A stretch of DNA of 64,000 nucleotides from an uncultured delta proteobacterium (lineage in GTDB: Bacteria > Myxococcota_A > Polyangia > Polyangiales > Polyangiaceae), in the NCBI GenBank assembly GCA_963782055.1, contig CAWAIF010000002.1, positions 416,001 to 480,000 on the forward strand, in the 5' to 3' direction. How positions within the stretch are numbered: position 1 is the stretch's first letter; each line of letters opens with the position of its first letter. The translations under genes and the position numbers were made by a program. The notes under the pieces were generated by a model. It was not told where the DNA came from. It searched no databases and worked only from the letters and a program-made list of their open reading frames with translations. This document shows positions 13,901 through 55,079 of the stretch, one piece after another.

Positions 13901-14512
13901 ATGACACCGCTCTTGTTCGGGACCAAGCGCGCGTACTACGCGACGCTGCGTGTGACGCGCCGGCTTCTCGCTCGCTTCGGGCTCACGCCGGCGCGCTTCG
14001 ACCTGCTGTACGCCCTGTTTCGCGTGCCGCACCACTTCTGTTACCAGAGCGATCTGCGCAAGGCGCTGGGGGTGGCGCGGTCGACCATCAGCAAGATGGT
14101 GACGTCACTCCAGGGCATCGGCCTGGTGGAGCGGCTGCCGCCGCTCGAGGACATGCGGCAGGTGGACGTGCAGCTCACGCCGGAGGGGCGCCGCCGCGTC
14201 TCGCGAGCGTTTCGCAGCCTCGTGCGCACGGGGCTCATCAATCTGACGACGGACTCGGCGCTCACGCCGGACCCGCACCACTGGCCCCACCCGAAGGCGT
14301 GCGGCCGCGCCCGACGGTGGCTGTCGCGGCTGCACAGCCGGCTGCGCAACACCTTCGGCGACTTCGCGACCCTGCACGCCGCGGAGGGCGATCCGTACGA
14401 GTCGGGGTGGACCTGGCTCGACCTGGTGGACCGGGTCGCGGCGAACAGGCGCATCGAGCGGCGCCGGGCGTCCGGCGACCCGTTCGAGTGGCCCGCACCG
14501 ATGATCGAGTGA
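13901..14512 (+). CDS. MarR family winged-helix protein, copy 2 (203 aa)
   Basis: Differs from copy 1 at only 2 aa (F5L and D to N in GLIDL/GLINL). Confidence 0.88.
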   Translation: MTPLLFGTKRAYYATLRVTRRLLARFGLTPARFDLLYALFRVPHHFCYQSDLRKALGVARSTISKMVTSLQGIGLVERLPPLEDMRQVDVQLTPEGRRRVSRAFRSLVRTGLINLTTDSALTPDPHHWPHPKACGRARRWLSRLHSRLRNTFGDFATLHAAEGDPYESGWTWLDLVDRVAANRRIERRRASGDPFEWPAPMIE

Positions 14513-14612
14513 GGGCGTTCCCCTCGGTGGCGCTCGCCGCAACGCTTCGCGCCGCCGGCGTCATCGCGCCCGCCCGCGCCCACACCGGCGCCACCGCGCC
14601 ACGCGCCGGCCG

Positions 14613-15182
14613 CTACTCGCGCGCCGCCGCGCCGAACGCCATGTTCATGATGACGGCCTTGCCCGGGCACTTCGAGCCGTCGAAGTGCGCGTCGGTCGCC
14701 ACCTTCTTCATGCACGCCACCGCCTCGGCGCTCAGGTCCTTCGGGTCCTTCGGGTTCGCGACCTCGATCTTCTTGACGTGCCCCTTCACGTCGATGCGCA
14801 GCGTGACGCGCACATGGCCGGTCATGTCCGGCTTCTTCGCGCGCGCCTTGAAGAAACAGCGCTTCACCTTGGGCCGCAGCGCCTGCTCGAAGGGCACCGC
14901 GGGCGCGCCGCACGTGTCGGCCTCCTCGGGCGGCGCGCTCGCCATCGCGCTCGCGCTCGGCGCCGCCGACGCGCTCGGTGCCGCCGACGCACTCGGTGCC
15001 CCCGCGGCACCCGCGGTCGCGCTCGCCGCCTCGCCCGGCGCCGATGCGCTCGGCGCGACCGTTGCGCTCGCGCTCGCCGTGCTCGTTGGCTCCGGCATGG
15101 CGTGCGTCTCCGCCTGACCACCACCGCACGCGCACGCCCACACACACGCCGCCACCAGCACCCCGATGCGTCCCTTTTGCAT
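14613..15182 (-). CDS. Lipoprotein with Ala/Ser/Pro linker and TonB-C/AgmX-PglI-like C-terminal domain
   Basis: Lipobox ACAC; APSASA repeats; VKRCF...PDMTGHVRVTLRID..G.V...C pattern. Confidence 0.65.
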   Translation of the reverse strand: MQKGRIGVLVAACVWACACGGGQAETHAMPEPTSTASASATVAPSASAPGEAASATAGAAGAPSASAAPSASAAPSASAMASAPPEEADTCGAPAVPFEQALRPKVKRCFFKARAKKPDMTGHVRVTLRIDVKGHVKKIEVANPKDPKDLSAEAVACMKKVATDAHFDGSKCPGKAVIMNMAFGAAARE

Positions 15183-15325
15183 GCGCGCATCTTACTCGCG
15201 CCACGCGCTCCCTCCAATCAAACGCAATTGTTTGAAGAGATTTCAATCAATCATTTGACACATCAAACATCGAGCTTTCACCCCTGTCCGCACTGCGCCC
15301 CGGAAATCAGCCTCGACCGAGAATG

Positions 15326-15369
15326 TGTGGATAACTTGAGGAGAACGCTGTGGGCTTCGGTGTGGACAA
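15326..15369. promoter_or_regulatory. DnaA boxes in AT-rich region
   Basis: Perfect TGTGGATAA at 15326-15334 and one-mismatch TGTGGACAA at 15361-15369; AT-rich tract about 15216-15280 with TTGACA at 15255. Confidence 0.6.
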
Positions 15370-15429
15370 AAAAAGTGATTGAGCCGCCACTTTTTTTGTT
15401 GAACCCGGTCACCGTTCTGGTGCACATAT

Positions 15430-17619
15430 GCCCTCGCAGTTCGCGGTACGTCAGTTCCGCGAGCCAACAATCGTAGAAGCCGTAAGGGGCGCTGCGGTCG
15501 GGGGCCGTCCGGGGTCTTCGGACCTCGGGGGGTCGGCCGACCGGGCCCGCAGGCGACGCTTGGACGTCAAATCCAGGCGCACGCGGCGGGTTCGAAAAGG
15601 CGCGGACACTTCGCTCGGCAAGGCCCGTACAAGGCGGCGTCGTTCGAAGGTCCTGCCGGACGTTTCCAGGGAGCAATCCCTTCTGGCGTCCGGTTCTCAC
15701 GGTGGAAGGCACCTCGGTCTCCGGAATGGCATCACCCTTCGCGGGGTGGCGTCGGAACGGAGGCCTCGGCCGGCGATGCATTCGCGGACGGGCTCCAACC
15801 CGGCTCGCGGTCACCGTCGGTGACAGGAGGGGCCTGTCCTCGCACCAAGGAGGGACCCGCCCGGCGAAAGCCGCGCGGGGCAGGAGCTCCGAGGGCACCA
15901 CGCCCTCGTCTCTTTCGCCTTCGCTCGAGCGAGGACGACCCGCGCGACTCTCATGTCATCGCGTCAGCCCGACAAAAGGCCGGCGCGGTGGGCTCTGGTG
16001 AATTCGGACCGGAGGGGTCCGGGCGCAAGCCCGGGCGTCGGAGAGATCGCGTGGCTCGCTGCAGCGTCGTGGCACGGGTGGCTTCGAAAGAGGCTGCTCG
16101 TGGCAGGTGCGCAAGCACCAGACACACGCGCGGCAAACGCTGGCGGGGCAATCCCCCGCGGCGGGCGAGGATCGCGCTCGGACGGAACGTGTCCGTGCGT
16201 CGTAAAGAAAAGTCGTTGCAGAAGTCGAGAGGCCGCGCAGGTCCAAAGAAGCGCCACCCACGCAAGCGGGGGCGTGAACGGGGGCCTGGCCATGGGAACC
16301 GCTCTTGCCCAAAGCAGAGCGCCATCCCCACGGTGAAGAGGCGCGGTGGCGGCGGGATCCTGGCGGCAAAACCAGGCCCGGCGCAGGCTCGTTCGTCCGG
16401 CGCAAGCCAGGCGGGCGCGGTTCGGGGCCTACGGTCTCCGAGCAGCAGGAAGAAGCTCCTTTCGACGGAAGGCGTCTCGGGTCGAGGAAGCGGCGTTGCC
16501 TTCACGGGCGCGTCGAACAGCCGGCCTCGGCGTCTTCGAATCGCCGTTCGGCACCGCGGAGCAATCCGCGACCGGGCGCGAGGAGAGGGCGCGACAGGGA
16601 CGTCAGAGGCTCGGTCGATCGCGCAGGCGGTGGGAACAACACGCCCCCCGGAATGCACGGCGGCCCGCCGAAGCGAGCCACGCGTCGTGAAGCGCAGGGC
16701 TCCTTGATCACGCACCCGACGGGGCAACCTCCACGGTGCGTGGCGCACGCAGGGCCGAGAAACCCCTGCGGACGCGAGGCGCGACCTCATCAGGAACGGA
16801 CGAGGCACGGGTGCTCGCAGTGAAGTTGTCGATGGCAGACGCTGGTCGTACGCATCGCGCGTGCGCGCACGGGATGTCGCAAGGCACCCCGCGGGCGTGC
16901 GCTAGCCCTCAGCCTCCGAGGTCACCGCCCTGAACGCGGTCCCCGGCCAAAGCGGAGTGCGAAACGGTGTGCGAGTACCGCGGGGATTTCATTCCGAAAC
17001 CCCAGGTGCTCGATCCGCGGGCTCGAATCCCACGGAACATTCGACACGGCGGAAGGCGCTCTGGGTCGTGGCTACATCACCCTCTCAACGGGGTGGCGAA
17101 AGCGCGGCTCTGGCTCCGCAGGTGGAAGCACGTGTCGTCGTCGCAAGACGAAGGCGCGCGCGGTCGGGCGCTCGGCGCGAGTCGAGTGTGCGGCGAGCTC
17201 GGTGAGGAATGGATCCCCATCGGGTGCCTGTGGGCGACACGGAGCGTCAGAGGTCGGTCTCTCGTCGGTCAAGGCTCCTCCAGCCGTAACAAGGCGCGGG
17301 GGGTCCGCACGCAGCACGCCGAAAGGCGACAAGCTCGCGTGCACCGGCGGCGAATCGTACCGAAGCAGGTGGTCGGTAATACCGCCACCATCCTCTCCAG
17401 GCCCTGCCGGCGCGAACCGCGCGGGGCCCGTGACGAAGGCATCGGCACCACTGGATGACGCGCGGAGCGGCGCTCGATCCTCGAAAGCGGAGATCGAGAC
17501 GCGCTCTGCGGGTGGATCGTGAGAGGCACGAAGACTGTCTCCGGGGCCAAGCGGCCCGCCACGATCAAGCGACTCCACGAAGGGCGGCCTGGGTGACCAG
17601 GTCGCCCTCGTGCTTTTTT
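15430..17619 (+). ncRNA. Candidate very large structured non-coding RNA (~2.2 kb); 5' end approximate
   Basis: No ORF with native codon bias. At least 13 hairpins capped by GCAA/GAAA/GTGA/TTCG on the + strand with frequent G-U pairs, T-loop-like hairpins, and a terminal intrinsic terminator. Confidence 0.7.
17576..17619 (+). terminator. Rho-independent terminator
   Basis: CACG-A-AGGGCGGCCTGG GTGA CCAGGTCGCCCT-CGTG followed by CTTTTTT. Confidence 0.85.
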
Positions 17620-17694
17620 GTCGCGCAAGCCTTGCGATCGTTCGCCGGCTTGCGAGCGGGGCACGGGGCGGCAGAAGGCGCTACCCTTCTCCCC

Positions 17695-19035
17695 GTGGAC
17701 AAGGCCCTCCTCTCCCGGCTCTACGACAAGCACGTCGCCACCCTCACCGAGGCCTATGCCAAGGCCCTCGCGAGCGCGGGCTTCGACGCCGCCGTGCTGC
17801 ACTCCGGCTCCCTCGTCCGCAAGACGCGCTTCGACGATCAGGACTGGCCGCTCCGGGTGGTCCCTCACTTCGCGCACTGGCTCCCCCTCGCCGAGCCGGA
17901 CTGCGCGCTCGTCGTCGCCCAGTCGGGCCCGCCGAGGCTCATCCACCCGCACACCACCTCCTTCTGGGAGGCCCCGCCCGCCCCCGAGTCGGACCATTTC
18001 TGGCCGTCCTTCCAGCTCGTGCGGCCCGCCTCGGTGGAGGCGGTGCGGTCCGAGCTGCCCAGCGGTCGGGTGGCGTTCGTCGGGGACGATGAGCGGCGGG
18101 CGGCGGGGTGGGACTTCGCCCCCGAGGCCGTCAATCCGCCTGCCCTCATCGTGGCCTTCGACGCCATCCGCACCCGCAAGACCGCCTACGAGGTGGAGTG
18201 CATCGCCGAAGCCAACCGCCGGGCCTCGCGCGGCCACGATGCGCTGCGCGAGGCGTTCGCCAGCGGCGAGACCGCCGAGCTCGCCCTGCACCTGCTCTTT
18301 TTGAAGGCCACCGCGCAGGACGATCCGGAGACGCCCTACAAGAACATCGTCGCGGGCGGCCGCCACGCCGCCACCCTGCACCACGTGAGCTACCGCAAGG
18401 ACGCCTCCGGCGCGCCCAGCCTGCTCGTCGACGCGGGCGCCGTCTGCCTTGGCTACTGCTCCGACATCACGCGCACCTGGGTCAAGGGCGACGGGGCGGG
18501 CGCCAGCGCCTTCGCCTCCCTCGTGGCGGCGGTGGAGGCGATGCAGAAGCGGCTGGTGGAGCGCATCGCCATCGGCCTGCTGTACGAGGAGCTGCATGAC
18601 GAGTCGCACCGGCAGGTGTCCGCCATCCTCCACGAGCTGGGAGTGGCCCGCATGTCCCCCGAGGCCATCGACCACGAGGGCATCAGCCGCGCCTTCTATC
18701 CTCACGGTCTGGGTCATTCGCTTGGCCTCCAGACGCACGACGTCGGCTGCGCCACCACCAGACCGCGCGCGGACAACCCCTTCCTGCGCAACACCGCCCG
18801 GATCGAGACCGGGCAGGTCTTCACCATGGAGCCGGGCGTCTACTTCATCGAGGAGCTGCTCGCCCGCCTGAAGGCCGGGCCGCACGCGGGGGACATCGAC
18901 TGGGACGTGGTGGGGGCGCTCGCGCCGTTCGGCGGGGTGCGGGTGGAGGACGACATCCTGGTGCGCGCCGAGGGCGAGCCGGTGCGGAATTTCACCCGGG
19001 AGGTGCTGCCGTGGGGCGGAGGCCTGGTCCGGTAG
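17695..19035 (+). CDS. pepQ: Xaa-Pro dipeptidase (M24 prolidase)
   Basis: PYKNIVA, LVDAGA...YCSDITRT, PHGLGHSLGLQTHDVG, TMEPGVYF and GGVRVEDDI. GTG start inferred. Confidence 0.9.
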   Translation: MDKALLSRLYDKHVATLTEAYAKALASAGFDAAVLHSGSLVRKTRFDDQDWPLRVVPHFAHWLPLAEPDCALVVAQSGPPRLIHPHTTSFWEAPPAPESDHFWPSFQLVRPASVEAVRSELPSGRVAFVGDDERRAAGWDFAPEAVNPPALIVAFDAIRTRKTAYEVECIAEANRRASRGHDALREAFASGETAELALHLLFLKATAQDDPETPYKNIVAGGRHAATLHHVSYRKDASGAPSLLVDAGAVCLGYCSDITRTWVKGDGAGASAFASLVAAVEAMQKRLVERIAIGLLYEELHDESHRQVSAILHELGVARMSPEAIDHEGISRAFYPHGLGHSLGLQTHDVGCATTRPRADNPFLRNTARIETGQVFTMEPGVYFIEELLARLKAGPHAGDIDWDVVGALAPFGGVRVEDDILVRAEGEPVRNFTREVLPWGGGLVR

Positions 19036-32708: not shown

Positions 32709-34121
32709 TCAGTCGGCCGCGCCGAGCTTCCGCTCGATGGCCTCCAGGTGCGCGCGCACCTCGGGATCGTTGGTCCGCAGGCCCTCCACCTTGCGCACCG
32801 CGCTCATCACCGTCGTGTGATCCCGGTTGCCGAAGGCGCGCCCCAGCTCCGGGAAGCTGCACTTCAGCCGCTGCTTGCACAGGTACATCGCCACGTGCCG
32901 CGCGAAGGCGATGCTCTTGTGGCGGTCCTTGCTGAGCAGATCCCCGCTGCGCAGCTTGAAGTGGTGGCAGACGACGCGCTGGATGTCCTCCACGCTCGAC
33001 TCCGTCGGCCGCGCGCTGGACGCCGCGAGGATCTCCTGCCGGGCGAAGTCCACCGACATGGGCTTGCCGAGCAGCGACGCCTTCGCCGCGATGCGGATGA
33101 GCGTGCCCTCCAGCTCGCGCACGTTGCTGCGCACCGACTGGGCGATGCAGAGCACCACGTCGTGCGCCACCTCGATCTTCTCGAGCTGCGCCTTCTTGCG
33201 CACGATGGCGACGCGCGTCTCCAGCTCCGGCGGCTGGATGTCGGCCACCAGCCCGGAGGCGAAGCGCGAGACGAGCCGCTCCTCCATCCGCTCGAGCTGC
33301 TGGGGGTACTTGTCGCTCGTCAGGATGATCTGCTTGTCCGCCTGGTGCAGGGCGTTGAACGCGTGGAAAAACTCCTCCTGCGTCTGCGTCTTGGAGGCGA
33401 GGAACTGGATGTCGTCGACGAGGAGCAGGTCGCAGCGCTCGCGGTAGCGCGCGCGGAACTCGTTCATCCGGTTGTCCTGCAGCGCCTGGACGAAGTCGTT
33501 GATGAACTTCTCCGCCGAGATGTACAGGATGCGGGCATCCGGGCGCTCCTCGCGCACGCGGTGGGCGACGGCGTGCACCAGGTGGGTCTTGCCCAGGCCG
33601 GTGCCGCCGCAGAGAAAGAGCGGGTTGTGCCGGGGCCCACCGCCGCCGGCGGCCGCGATGGAGGCGGCGTGGGCGAGCTGGTTGGACGGCCCCACGACGA
33701 AGTTGACGAAGGTGTACTTCGGGTTGAGACCCTCGATGGGCGGCGGCGCCGGCGCCACGCTGGGGCGGCGCGTCCGCGGCGCGGGCTCCTCGTCGTCCTC
33801 CCGGACGATCAGCGGGCGAGGCCGTACCGGCGGCACGCTGGGGTGCGACGCCACGGGTCGCTCGACCTGGCCGCCCACCGTCCACGCCACCTGGACGCTC
33901 CACCCCGTCTTGCTCCGGATGAAGTCGGTGATGGTCGGGAGGAAATGCTGGTCCACCCACTCGCGGACGAACTCGTCGCGCGCCCGCAGGCCCAGCACGC
34001 CGTCGGTCAGGCCGTCGAACTGGATCCCGGAGAACCACTGATCGAAGCTCGCCGGCGAGCGCTCACGCGTAAAGGCGATTGCCTCTGTCCAGAGCCCTTG
34101 CTCCATCTCCACCTCGGTCAC
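32709..34121 (-). CDS. dnaA: Chromosomal replication initiator
   Basis: LNPKYTFVNFVVGPSN, NPLFLCGGTGLGKTHL, LLVDDIQF, QEEFFH, SNVRELEG and RDHTTV. Confidence 0.97.
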   Translation of the reverse strand: MTEVEMEQGLWTEAIAFTRERSPASFDQWFSGIQFDGLTDGVLGLRARDEFVREWVDQHFLPTITDFIRSKTGWSVQVAWTVGGQVERPVASHPSVPPVRPRPLIVREDDEEPAPRTRRPSVAPAPPPIEGLNPKYTFVNFVVGPSNQLAHAASIAAAGGGGPRHNPLFLCGGTGLGKTHLVHAVAHRVREERPDARILYISAEKFINDFVQALQDNRMNEFRARYRERCDLLLVDDIQFLASKTQTQEEFFHAFNALHQADKQIILTSDKYPQQLERMEERLVSRFASGLVADIQPPELETRVAIVRKKAQLEKIEVAHDVVLCIAQSVRSNVRELEGTLIRIAAKASLLGKPMSVDFARQEILAASSARPTESSVEDIQRVVCHHFKLRSGDLLSKDRHKSIAFARHVAMYLCKQRLKCSFPELGRAFGNRDHTTVMSAVRKVEGLRTNDPEVRAHLEAIERKLGAAD

Positions 34122-34322
34122 GCTTCTTGCCTCGTGCGGGAGCCGCGACCCCCGAAAAAAGAAAAAGCACCCTCCGCGCGCACGGGAACTGCTTCCCGGG
34201 CGGCTCCGTCTCTCCGGAACCGGCCGGACGCCATGCGACCGACCTGCGCACCCCAGCCCTGCTCGTCGCCCGGACGGGGACCCCCACGATGAATCGGGTA
34301 GGAGCTACACCTACTTCACAAG

Positions 34323-34343
34323 TTATCCACAGCCTGTGGAAAA
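34323..34343. promoter_or_regulatory. Paired DnaA boxes upstream of dnaA (autoregulation or oriC candidate)
   Basis: Perfect TTATCCACA at 34323-34331 and inverted TGTGGAAAA at 34335-34343; AT-richer tract about 34490-34630. Confidence 0.75.
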
Positions 34344-34796
34344 CCTTCCACCATGCGCTCCGCGCCGCCGTTTCTGGCCTGGGCCATGCTTGGGGGGCTT
34401 GGCGCCCTCCCTCGGCGAGCGAGGAAGTCACGGTGGCGCTGGGCAACCGCGACGTAAAGAGAGTGGCTACCACCGGCCGATTAGCCTCGTCCACGGCGAT
34501 CATATCGAAACGGATCAAGTCGACGAAATGACTCGGGATTATTGGGTGTAGATCCCCTGTGAATTCCATTGCCGCGGCCTGCACGCAGCTGCCCTGGCCG
34601 CTAGCTGCATGATTTGCAAAAGGATTTGGGCGGGTTCTCGCGGGGGCGAGGGCAAAATGGGCCGTTTTTGCCCCGATCTGGGCTGTCAAGACACGACGTT
34701 CCGGCGGCGTTTTCGCGACGGACGCGTGAAGCGCGGCTGCGTGATCCTGCCGCCGAAAAGTGGCCGGGGCAGCAGGAGGTGTGGTTAGGGTGCCGC

Positions 34797-35822
34797 GTGG
34801 TGAGCAGCGTCGATCGACCTTCGCGGGCAGGGGCTACGGGCCGGGCTCTTGGTGCGCGCGTGGTCGCCGGCCTGGCGCTCACAGCGGGACTCTTGACGGG
34901 GTCAAGCGTTCGGGCCGATCCCTCCTCGACGTCGCCTCAGCAGGGCTTCGACCTGGGCCAGATCCCCTCCCCACGGTCGCTCGCCTTCGGCGGCGCGCAG
35001 GCGGCGCTGGGCGGCTCGACGACTGCCGTCTACCTCAACCCTGCGAACATGCCCTTCACGCACGTCTACCACTTCGAGGCGCTCGGGGGCTGGATCCCCG
35101 AGGCGGCGCGGCAGACCTACGGCGGGGCGGTGGCCGACTCGGTCACCAACAAGGTCGCCGGCGGCTTCGGCGGCTCGTGGTCGACGATGGACCCGGAGGG
35201 GCTGGACCGCACCTGGACCGACCTGCGGCTCGCCACCGCGTATCCCATCGCGCCCAGCTTCGCGCTCGGGCTGACGGGGCGGTACCTGCGCGTGGACCAG
35301 ACCGTGGGGCGCGGGCCCTTCGGACCGAGCCTGGCCTCCGACGGCACGCCCGACTCCGCGCTCTCCAGCCTCTTCACCTTCGACGCCGGGCTGACCTTCC
35401 GGCCCATCCCGCAGCTCTCCATCGCCGCGCTGGGTAAGAACCTCACCAACCCGGGGCGCGGCTTCGCGCCGACCACGGTGACCGGAGCGGTGGGCTACAC
35501 CACGCCCAGCGAGATCTTCTCCGCCGAGTTCGACGCCCTCGTCGACTTCACGACCTGGGGCGACCCGCGGGGGACCTACTCGCTCGGCGCCGAGCTGTTC
35601 TTGGTCAACCACCTGCTGCTGCGCCTCGGCTACCGCATCGACACCGGCATGAAGACCCACGCGCTGAGCGGCGGGCTCGGCTACGTGGACCGTCGCTTCA
35701 GCGTGGAGACGTCCATTCGCCGCGACATCGTCGCCGACCACCCCTCGACGATGTTCGTGCTGGGGCTCAAGTACTTCTACGACGCCGGCGCGACGCCCGA
35801 CCAGGCGATGAGCGCGGACTGA
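34797..35822 (+). CDS. Probable outer-membrane beta-barrel protein (FadL/PorV-like)
   Basis: Signal peptide; RSLAFGGA...AVYLNPA N-terminal motif; alternating beta strands with LRLGY. Start uncertain. Confidence 0.7.
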   Translation: MVSSVDRPSRAGATGRALGARVVAGLALTAGLLTGSSVRADPSSTSPQQGFDLGQIPSPRSLAFGGAQAALGGSTTAVYLNPANMPFTHVYHFEALGGWIPEAARQTYGGAVADSVTNKVAGGFGGSWSTMDPEGLDRTWTDLRLATAYPIAPSFALGLTGRYLRVDQTVGRGPFGPSLASDGTPDSALSSLFTFDAGLTFRPIPQLSIAALGKNLTNPGRGFAPTTVTGAVGYTTPSEIFSAEFDALVDFTTWGDPRGTYSLGAELFLVNHLLLRLGYRIDTGMKTHALSGGLGYVDRRFSVETSIRRDIVADHPSTMFVLGLKYFYDAGATPDQAMSAD

Positions 35823-54748: not shown

Positions 54749-54835
54749 CGGAGAGAGAGGGATTCGAACCCTCGGTACCCTTGCGGGCACACATGATTTC
54801 CAGTCATGCACCTTCGGCCACTCGGTCATCTCTCC
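54749..54835 (-). tRNA. tRNA-Ser(GGA)
   Basis: GGAGAGA acceptor stem, CATGA-CT-GGA-AA-TCATG anticodon arm, long variable arm, GTTCGAATC T-loop, G discriminator; CCA not encoded. Confidence 0.96.
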
Positions 54836-54992: not shown

Positions 54993-55079
54993 GGAGAGAT
55001 GACCGAGAGGCCGAAGGTGCCTGATTCGAAATCAGGTGTGCCCGCAAGGGTACCAGGGGTTCGAATCCCCTTCTCTCCG
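54993..55079 (+). tRNA. tRNA-Ser(CGA)
   Basis: CCTGA-TT-CGA-AA-TCAGG anticodon arm, long variable arm, T-loop, G discriminator; CCA not encoded. Confidence 0.96.

Follow-up and report, generated by a model that had tools for sequence, protein, structure and literature searches.

To our knowledge, bacteria have so far yielded only a handful of large structured non-coding RNAs. Work on RNA catalysis or RNA architecture was started by each of RNase P, group II introns, OLE, GOLLD and ROOL, and three of these, OLE, ROOL and GOLLD, have sizes of about 580-800 nucleotides (nt). OLE, ROOL and GOLLD are described as forming homo-oligomeric RNA assemblies (PMC12286853). The present work concerns an RNA encoded on the + strand at positions 15437-17615 of a 64,000-nt stretch of contig CAWAIF010000002.1 (this whole stretch is referred to below as the window), which comes from a genome of 7.58 Mb with a GC content of about 70% and a completeness of 97%. 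The region is very probably a single gene for an abundant, structured non-coding RNA of about 2.18 kb, belonging to an undescribed family of the order Polyangiales, whose product would form a compact scaffold and whose expression would be controlled by DnaA. The properties that define a structured non-coding RNA gene were all found: base pairs with compensatory changes, the absence of a coding signal, and a discrete transcript, the last in the form of assembled contigs.

The comparison with described RNA families can be made directly. A search with the 4227 models of Rfam 15 at gathering thresholds returns nothing in the window except two tRNA genes at 54.7-55.1 kb, which are divergent (54749-54835 on the - strand and 54993-55079 on the + strand), and a permissive scan of 15100-17750 produces five sub-threshold matches, the best of which (E=0.68, with 15.1 bits against a gathering threshold of 37) is to an unrelated small RNA. 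The models of Rfam 15 presumably include rRNA, RNase P, tmRNA, 6S, SRP, group I and II introns, OLE, GOLLD, ROOL and HEARO. A degenerate or diverged form of a known large RNA, such as an rRNA fragment, a group II intron lacking its open reading frame (ORF), RNase P, or one of OLE, GOLLD and ROOL, would have size, GNRA loops and a multi-domain build in common with the RNA described here, but the failure of every Rfam family to match at gathering level, together with the weakness of the best permissive match, makes such an origin very improbable. A literature search, which left subscription journals largely outside its reach, found no description of a large non-coding RNA of Myxococcota or Polyangia. 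The original prediction for this DNA, made from the sequence of the window, had proposed a very large, independently transcribed, structured RNA of an undescribed class; that proposal is supported, and its novelty stands after the Rfam search. The RNA is rated as a new class, a previously undescribed family that is confined, as far as searched, to the Polyangiales, which are soil-dwelling myxobacteria.

A discrete non-coding transcription unit

The block of about 2.2 kb of non-coding DNA that had been claimed amid coding DNA is real. It occupies a gap in coding of about 2.5 kb between a TonB_C-like gene (14616-15182, - strand) and the Xaa-Pro dipeptidase gene pepQ (17695-19032, + strand), and the GC content by codon position is flat, at 0.58-0.77, across 15001-17700, while the GC content at third codon positions is at least 0.9 in both flanks. 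Substitutions relative to six genomes of the same genus lack 3-periodicity in pairwise comparisons (p 0.30-0.82), whereas those in the adjacent pepQ have it (p=1.8e-13). Among 29 homologues the length of the longest + strand ORF is not kept, with values between 77 and 343 amino acids (aa), and about 10% of the gap runs in the seven-genome genus alignment are multiples of three, in a rough count that includes shared gaps. Substitutions with a codon pattern, which had been named in advance as an observation that would count against an RNA, are not seen; the changes covary instead. The region 15437-17615 on the + strand is not protein-coding. The contrary idea, that it is protein-coding DNA or a decayed pseudogene, can appeal to the ORFs of up to 295 aa on both strands of the gap, but long ORFs are expected by chance at a GC content of about 70%, and the flat codon-position GC and aperiodic substitutions, along with the varying ORF lengths and gap runs, rule out a coding reading and leave it with a negligible probability.

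The sequence is present in 12 metatranscriptome runs from three studies, two of soil and one of sediment, and 87-91% of sampled words were recovered in 8 of the 12 runs, each of only 30-42 million letters. The contigs of four runs (X1, X2, X3 and X9) were mapped onto 14000-19000. Run X1 provides two contigs, covering 15445-16980 at a depth of 240 and 17027-17580 at a depth of 923; run X3 provides a contig covering 15445-17534; the contig of run X2 covers 15571-17615 and then continues with 24 non-templated A residues; and that of run X9, which comes from a 96%-identical relative, covers 15453-17456. In these four runs the RNA contigs are confined to 15445-17615, with depths of 99-923. No RNA contig was found on 17674-19000, and none on 14000-15335 apart from one 41-nt piece with a depth of 0.66 and unrelated flanks. 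Because both flanks are silent, carry-over of DNA is unlikely. The run of 24 A residues begins seven bases beyond the stem of the terminator described below, a position that fits a + strand RNA ending at that terminator. The RNA is assigned to the + strand on the basis of promoter and terminator orientation, the 12:1 strand asymmetry of GNRA hairpins, the fold z-scores, and the non-templated A run after 17615. The region 15437-17615 is transcribed as a discrete unit whose neighbours are silent in the same libraries, and the predicted transcript of about 2.1-2.2 kb was thus found in the libraries of three studies with the expected ends, as contigs from which the strand is deduced.

An intrinsic terminator had been claimed for the end of the block, and one was found on the + strand at 17581-17619, where a stem of 12 base pairs (bp) at 17581-17608 with a GUGA loop is followed by the CGUGCUUUUU T-run; it is kept among the homologues. 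The terminator bears on the suggestion that the RNA is a long cis-acting leader or 3' untranslated region of a neighbouring gene, either pepQ downstream or, in other genomes, a cell-wall enzyme gene upstream. The arrangement of the genes gives this suggestion some basis, since pepQ lies on the same strand 80 nt past the terminator, and does so in G004 as well, and since the gene of a conserved protein of about 750 aa lies upstream on the same strand in seven genomes. The terminator is nevertheless strong and conserved, the RNA cover of pepQ is zero against depths of 100-900 on the RNA itself, the neighbours differ between genera, and upstream of the RNA lies a conserved control region of its own, so that a leader or untranslated region is a highly improbable explanation of a transcript that is better read as an independent gene.

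Compensatory change, folding and distribution

The structural signal was evaluated with two alignments. The genus alignment consists of seven sequences aligned with plain MAFFT, from which RNAalifold derived a consensus of local helices spanning at most 60 positions. It contains 591 local pairs in 71 helices, and 91.3% of its cells are paired, compared to 83.0% after shuffling. Both sides change in 211 of the 591 pairs, compared to 90.8 +/- 6.5 in shuffled data (0 of 500 shuffles reach the observed value), and the covariation score is 0.303, compared to 0.163 for shuffles and 0.066-0.087 when pairing partners are slid by 1-3 columns. The second alignment covers the internal module that is described in the next section. 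RNAalifold applied to a plain MAFFT alignment of all 29 sequences fails to give a structure for module 1 and recovers just 4 pairs at the 5' end, a near-empty result attributed to misaligned stems, and a seed of 12 sequences with a covariance model was therefore used. The seed has 36 pairs, 24 with compensatory changes, and 57 instances were then aligned to the model. In the resulting alignment of 57 rows, 87.8% of the cells of the 36 pairs are paired, compared to 63.6% after shuffling, there are 418 double-change cells, compared to 149 +/- 10 (0 of 500 shuffles reach this), and the covariation score is 0.486, compared to 0.056-0.109 for slid partners. The observed covariation score and the number of double-change cells are each reached by 0 of 500 shuffles in both alignments, the count of pairs with a double change is matched by 2 of 500 shuffles for the module and by 0 of 500 for the genus, and the slid-partner controls lie 3-8 times below the observed values in both. 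The helices of the RNA are kept by compensatory changes: the homologues diverge with such changes well in excess of shuffled and slid controls.

The original prediction had drawn attention to 13 hairpins closed by tetraloops and to two further T-loop-like hairpins. A mechanical scan for hairpins with a GNRA loop and at least 4 contiguous pairs finds 12 on the + strand and 1 on the - strand of 15437-17615, compared to 1.9 +/- 1.3 (maximum 6) in 300 dinucleotide shuffles and 1.4 +/- 1.2 (maximum 5) in 54 other 2.2-kb pieces of the window. Ten of the 13 were recovered mechanically on the + strand with stems of at least 4 bp (loops at 15517, 15673, 15866, 16025, 16086, 16111, 16561, 16879, 17143 and 17321); those at 16399 and 16721 have only 3-bp stems, and the listed hairpin at 17473 has no tetraloop. 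Both T-loop-like hairpins exist in the window. In the remaining six genomes of its genus they do not keep this form: the hairpin at 17014-17032 has a cap such as GCAA or GAAA, and the loop of the one at 16527-16543 is variable. These differences rule out conserved T-loops. Fold z-scores, computed for 300-nt segments with 30 shuffles, have a mean of -2.20 on the + strand (best -5.08) and -0.71 on the - strand, compared to -0.46 +/- 1.62 for coding controls. Folding thus favours the + strand, as had been anticipated, but only moderately, and is supportive rather than decisive.

Full-length colinear homologues were found by BLAST in all 6 other genomes of the genus, at 65-73% identity, which places the RNA gene in 7 of 7 genomes; pepQ is 69-72% identical among them, about the same as the RNA gene, and the upstream flank is not conserved. 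A profile of the genus sequences extends the set of homologues to G019, of a different genus, and to G028, of a different family. The search was widened by BLAST with the G028 copy against 301 genomes of the order, and by nhmmer on loci L152-L180 (29 loci), L150 (G041) and L151 (G028), which brought the number of homologues up considerably. The 5' and 3' ends could be defined for 29 copies in 28 genomes of the Polyangiales, from 10 families, and the homologues with a recognised terminator have lengths of 1,774-2,442 nt.

With a covariance model of the first 72 nt of the RNA (model R2), 67 genomes out of a sample of 151 from the order give a match at E<=1e-3. The E-values of this model cannot be relied on, since matches at 2.5e-7 to 9e-6 also occur outside the order, in apparently ordinary coding genes of G407, G370 and G397, and only matches that have E<=1e-9 or are corroborated were therefore counted. 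Matches at E<=1e-9 occur in 24 of the 151 genomes, and weaker matches in three more (G099, G119 and G141) are corroborated by a module or BLAST match at the expected spacing. The RNA is accordingly present in at least 27 of the 151 genomes, in 10 families (f1, f2, f5, f9, f11, f14, f18, f22, f23 and f24). Outside the Polyangiales no match was verified in 128 Myxococcota genomes sampled across the phylum, with a limited sensitivity that makes this "not found" rather than "absent". Model R1, which is described below, matches only family f1 in the phylum sample, in a search that scored 20 candidates per genome and is thus weak evidence of absence. A loose sequence-pattern scan of contigs yielded L037 (=G002), L098, L108 and L130 (=G028); nearly all of the matches listed for it (at least 120) are due to chance. 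An unpublished genome, G148, is the basis of no claim.

Internal architecture and upstream control region

Sequence conservation in the family is highest in the 5' domain (15437-15615, + strand), whose start is placed to within about 8 nt; the first position covered by RNA contigs is 15445 in X1 and X3 and 15453 in X9. This domain opens with hairpin P1 at 15439-15464 on the + strand, formed by GUUCGCGG and CCGCGAGC, whose pairing appears by eye to be kept through double changes in G025 and G248, and it includes the conserved + strand motifs GUAGAAGCCG (15473-15482) and GGCGCUGCG.

The remainder of the RNA appears to be organized around three paralogous modules of about 150-230 nt, a reading that is convincing through recurrence. 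Module M1 (15693-15836, + strand) has an outer helix GGCACCU/AGGGGCC, a helix GGUCUCCG/CGGAGGCC, a hairpin with the conserved loop UUCGCG, a long helix that carries a hairpin with a UCCA loop, and the junction GUGACA. A covariance model built from M1 only, with 147 positions (model R1), scores 134.6 bits on M1; it also matches module M2 (16456-16620, + strand, ending in GCGACAGGGACGUCAGAGGCUCGG) at 16456-16606 with E=9e-4, and module M3 (17040-17266, + strand, with a larger insert and ending in GGCGACACGGAGCGUCAGAGGUCGG) at 17040-17174 with E=0.036. In many genomes R1 aligns over the full extent of M2 and M3, as it does with M2 of G019 (2e-6) and of G124 (9e-6). Cross-matches by nhmmer are in register: a profile of M2 finds M3 at 17047-17269 (E=1.4e-4) and M1 (E=4e-4), and a profile of M3 finds M2 (E=1.3e-5). 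The parts common to the modules are GGAAGGC, which opens the outer helix, a second helix that encloses a hairpin with a conserved loop of the UUCRCG type, a long helix with a small hairpin whose loop contains UCC, the junction G(U/C)GACA, and a closing strand; in M2 and M3, CGUCAGAGG comes after this strand.

Between M2 and M3 lies a conserved core (16785-16975, + strand), which is the source of the BLAST matches in the most distant homologues; RNAalifold assigns it 34 pairs, 21 with compensatory changes, in a poorly resolved fold. It contains CGAGGCACGGGUGCUCG, GAUGGCAGA, a GUCGCAAG hairpin, GCUAGCC, GACGCGG and GAAACGGUG. The architecture is thus one of a conserved 5' domain and modules M1-M3 split by conserved cores, with peripheral GNRA hairpins that vary by lineage, and the gain and loss of these hairpins accounts for the length range of 1.77-2.44 kb. 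A larger triplicated unit of about 650 nt was also considered and rejected, since the regions preceding the modules cross-match by nhmmer in only 0-2 of 27-29 sequences. Each module is preceded, at a distance of 216-250 nt, by a short GYAGAAGYCG-like motif (15473, 16217 and 16835), which is the one hint at a larger repeat unit.

The repetition of the module raises the question of whether the transcript might be a precursor for several smaller RNAs, perhaps one from each module, which would act separately as protein sponges or as base-pairing regulators. Besides the three like modules themselves, such a scheme would fit the apparent one-module form of about 1.06 kb in relatives with small genomes (identified by eye) and the assembly of run X1 in pieces of unequal depth. 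Single contigs of 2.0-2.1 kb nevertheless span nearly the whole RNA in 3 of the 4 runs (X2, X3 and X9), conserved sequence and covarying helices are also found between the modules, and internal terminators or promoters are not conserved. Processing into smaller RNAs is thus unlikely, and the transcript is read here as a single RNA.

Several variants of the RNA occur among the homologues. The apparent short form is seen in genus g27 of family f9, whose genomes have 3-5 Mb (at about 1040-2100 of L171 in G194, and in L172 of G297). It has a single clear module along with the core, a terminator and two DnaA-box-like motifs that form an inverted pair; it could represent a minimal functional RNA. 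Genome G037 has two full-length RNA genes on separate contigs (L153 = C8 and L190 = C23), each with boxes, promoter and terminator; this genome is 85% complete with 2% contamination, and a mixed bin is a possible explanation of the two copies. Short tandem repeats are found within the RNA of two lineages, near the 5' domain in L159 (G248) and about 1700-2500 nt past the 5' end in L169 (G212), for example GCAGCGATGCCTTCGG three times and CCGTCCAGCGAAGGGCAG in repetition; in appearance they resemble expansion segments that are specific to a lineage.

Upstream of the RNA, on the + strand, are two 9-mers that match a DnaA box with at most one mismatch, TGTGGATAA at 15326-15334 and TGTGGACAA at 15361-15369; on the opposite strand TGTGGATAA reads as the DnaA box. 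With at most one mismatch TGTGGATAA occurs four times in the 64-kb window, twice here and twice upstream of dnaA, compared to 0.98 +/- 0.95 times in shuffles. The latter two matches (TTATCCACA at 34323 and TGTGGAAAA at 34335) lie in the intergenic region 34122-34613, next to dnaA (32712-34121, - strand), 16 kb from the RNA gene. A turn in the window's cumulative GC skew, near 26-30 kb, indicates that oriC is probably not far from this region. Clustered 9-mers within one mismatch of TTATCCACA, the mark of a DnaA-box cluster, were thus found. The whole 7.58-Mb genome contains 31 TGTGGAnAA 9-mers, and by eye the upstream regions of the homologues have at least two copies of TGTGGA in 24 of 30 cases and at least one in 29 of 30. 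The boxes are followed on the + strand by a promoter-like layout comprising an A7 tract (15368-15374), a T7 tract (15391-15397), TTGAAC (15399-15404) and a weak -10-like CACATAT (15423-15429). In the homologues, 2-4 copies of TGTGGA(T/A/G/C)AA come first and an A-tract second; a T-tract then leads directly into TTG(A/C)nn, and a spacer of 17-18 nt separates this from a GGCATAA-like hexamer, after which GAAG(U/G)UCGCGG follows. The A7 and T7 tracts in the window form part of an 11-bp inverted repeat at 15353-15411 (CAAAAAAAGTG...CACTTTTTTTG), which gives a chance-level match to an Rfam microRNA; the homologues keep the A- and T-tracts and not the pairing of the inverted repeat. Control of the expression of the RNA by DnaA is a well-founded inference from these sequence matches.

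The DnaA boxes also admit the alternative that what matters is the DNA itself or its being transcribed, with a cluster of DnaA boxes near oriC titrating or regulating DnaA and the transcript arising as a by-product. Loci that titrate or regulate DnaA are known, in the form of datA/DARS and of DnaA-box clusters in Bacillus. The conserved DnaA-box-like repeats upstream of the RNA would suit such a role, as would the position of the RNA gene: four genomes of the genus have it on one contig with dnaA (G000, G001, G004 and G006), and in these the two are 16-38 kb apart with an unchanged relative orientation. A by-product would not, however, keep 2 kb of helices by means of hundreds of compensatory changes, the sequences of loops and junctions are conserved across 10 families, and the RNA gene and dnaA are on different contigs in G019 and G028. 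An effect of the DNA or of its transcription alone is therefore improbable, and a functional RNA remains the preferred reading. The gene that follows the upstream region of dnaA (34614-35819, + strand) has no Pfam match at E<=1e-3.

The flanking genes of 20 loci are heterogeneous, and those that recur are envelope genes, for ExbD/TolR, TonB_C-like, OmpA-like and the roughly 750-aa proteins; their recurrence looks like inherited synteny rather than a functional link. In seven genomes the gene for the last of these proteins, with 690-810 aa or so, directly precedes the RNA gene on its strand (L194:1943-4156 in G028, L196:5339-7594 in G049, L209:4294-6717 in G248, and also L197, L199, L200 and L171); the protein is 60-66% identical between families of the order. 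It has no Pfam or NCBIfam family, and its HGS...SHGCHRLHN stretch resembles an L,D-transpeptidase catalytic motif. The divergent upstream gene of the window (14616-15182, - strand), like L212:4292-4801 in G004, has an AgmX/PglI C-terminal (TonB_C-like) match below the curated cut-off; this domain is myxobacterial and is found in gliding-motility proteins.

Possible function and relation to known systems

By analogy, the RNA appears to share the build of compactly folded RNAs, as exemplified by rRNA, group II introns and the ornate large RNAs, and to be unlike simple sponge RNAs in this respect. In the mechanism proposed here the RNA would fold into a compact tertiary structure in which GNRA loops dock into helices, and each of the three like modules would recognise one shared partner, or else RNA surfaces of one kind. 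Since three like modules suggest three equivalent binding surfaces, a scaffold is favoured, and the best guess is that the folded RNA acts as the scaffold of a ribonucleoprotein or of an RNA-only assembly of the OLE/ROOL/GOLLD type. DnaA, acting on the conserved TGTGGAnAA boxes, would control transcription and might thereby tie the level of the RNA to the growth and replication state of the cell.

A number of observations weigh against this interpretation or limit its parts. The exact ends, strand and true level of the transcript are beyond what contigs can prove, and the A-tail suggests that at least one library may favour polyadenylated RNA. The structure of the genus alignment was derived from that same alignment and is hence biased towards structure, as the module alignment, which was fitted to a model, also leans towards it; the four-fold gap between the genus covariation score and the slid controls would be hard to obtain from shared derivation alone, which argues that the signal is real. 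Long-range pairs are poorly resolved, as is the core at 16785-16975, and the paralogy of M2 and M3 is moderate in any one sequence (E 1e-3 to 4e-2), drawing its strength from recurrence across many genomes. Many genomes of the order have no match, perhaps through loss or through divergence beyond detection. A sigma-70 consensus scan finds no promoter in 15000-17800, where the -10 element is weak, DnaA binding is deduced from sequence matches alone, and no RNA-related gene is found among the conserved neighbours at the 20 loci. The scaffold idea itself derives from architecture only.

A bolder version of the interpretation, which is possible but doubtful, is that this is the largest structured RNA known from bacteria outside the ribosome, a single-chain "pseudo-trimer" in which the three modules are arranged around a conserved core to form a ribozyme or an RNA-only or ribonucleoprotein nano-assembly, specific to the Polyangiales, with a synthesis wired directly to DnaA and a role in the control of growth or the cell cycle. 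On either version the RNA offers good material for further study. At 2.2 kb it is abundant enough to assemble from small soil metatranscriptomes, dozens of diverged homologues are at hand for covariation analysis, and the internal three-fold repeat should help structural work. The DnaA boxes are a testable regulatory lead in bacteria that are known for complex life cycles and large genomes. The family also indicates that RNAs of kilobase scale can still escape notice in well-sampled phyla, because at a GC content of 70% such genes are hidden beneath chance ORFs.

Among known systems, CsrB/RsmZ and 6S RNA are, like the present RNA, abundant and non-coding, and they are built of repeated units that bind several copies of one protein, to which the repeated units found here may be analogous. 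They are, however, 100-400 nt long with simple repeated hairpins, whereas the units here are multi-helix domains of about 150-230 nt. Two more specific ideas were discarded: PF02599 has no match in the genome (97% complete), which has no CsrA gene for a CsrA sponge, and PF05731 has none either, which leaves no Ro (TROVE) gene for a Y RNA/Ro particle. With rRNA and group II introns the RNA has in common its kilobase size, its multi-domain build, its abundance, and its GNRA-capped peripheral helices of lineage-variable length, which may be compared to expansion segments; it differs from them in having no model match, no intron-encoded protein, one copy per genome, and a location outside the rRNA operon. 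The control region resembles DnaA-regulated promoters and box clusters outside oriC in having 2-4 near matches to TTATCCACA (on the other strand) just upstream, as at dnaA, but the putative controlled product would be a 2-kb structured RNA and not a protein.

The closest likeness is to OLE, ROOL and GOLLD, which are also large and structured, with many conserved helices, GNRA-type loops, a transcription unit of their own and high expression. The present RNA has no similarity to their Rfam models, is about 3-4 times longer than they are, about three times the length of the largest such RNA described from bacteria, and is chromosomal, single-copy, found in Polyangiales only, and preceded by DnaA-box-like repeats; associated protein genes of the OLE kind were not found beside it at the 20 loci. 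It differs from all three, finally, in its three internal modules, by virtue of which any symmetry would lie within one chain.

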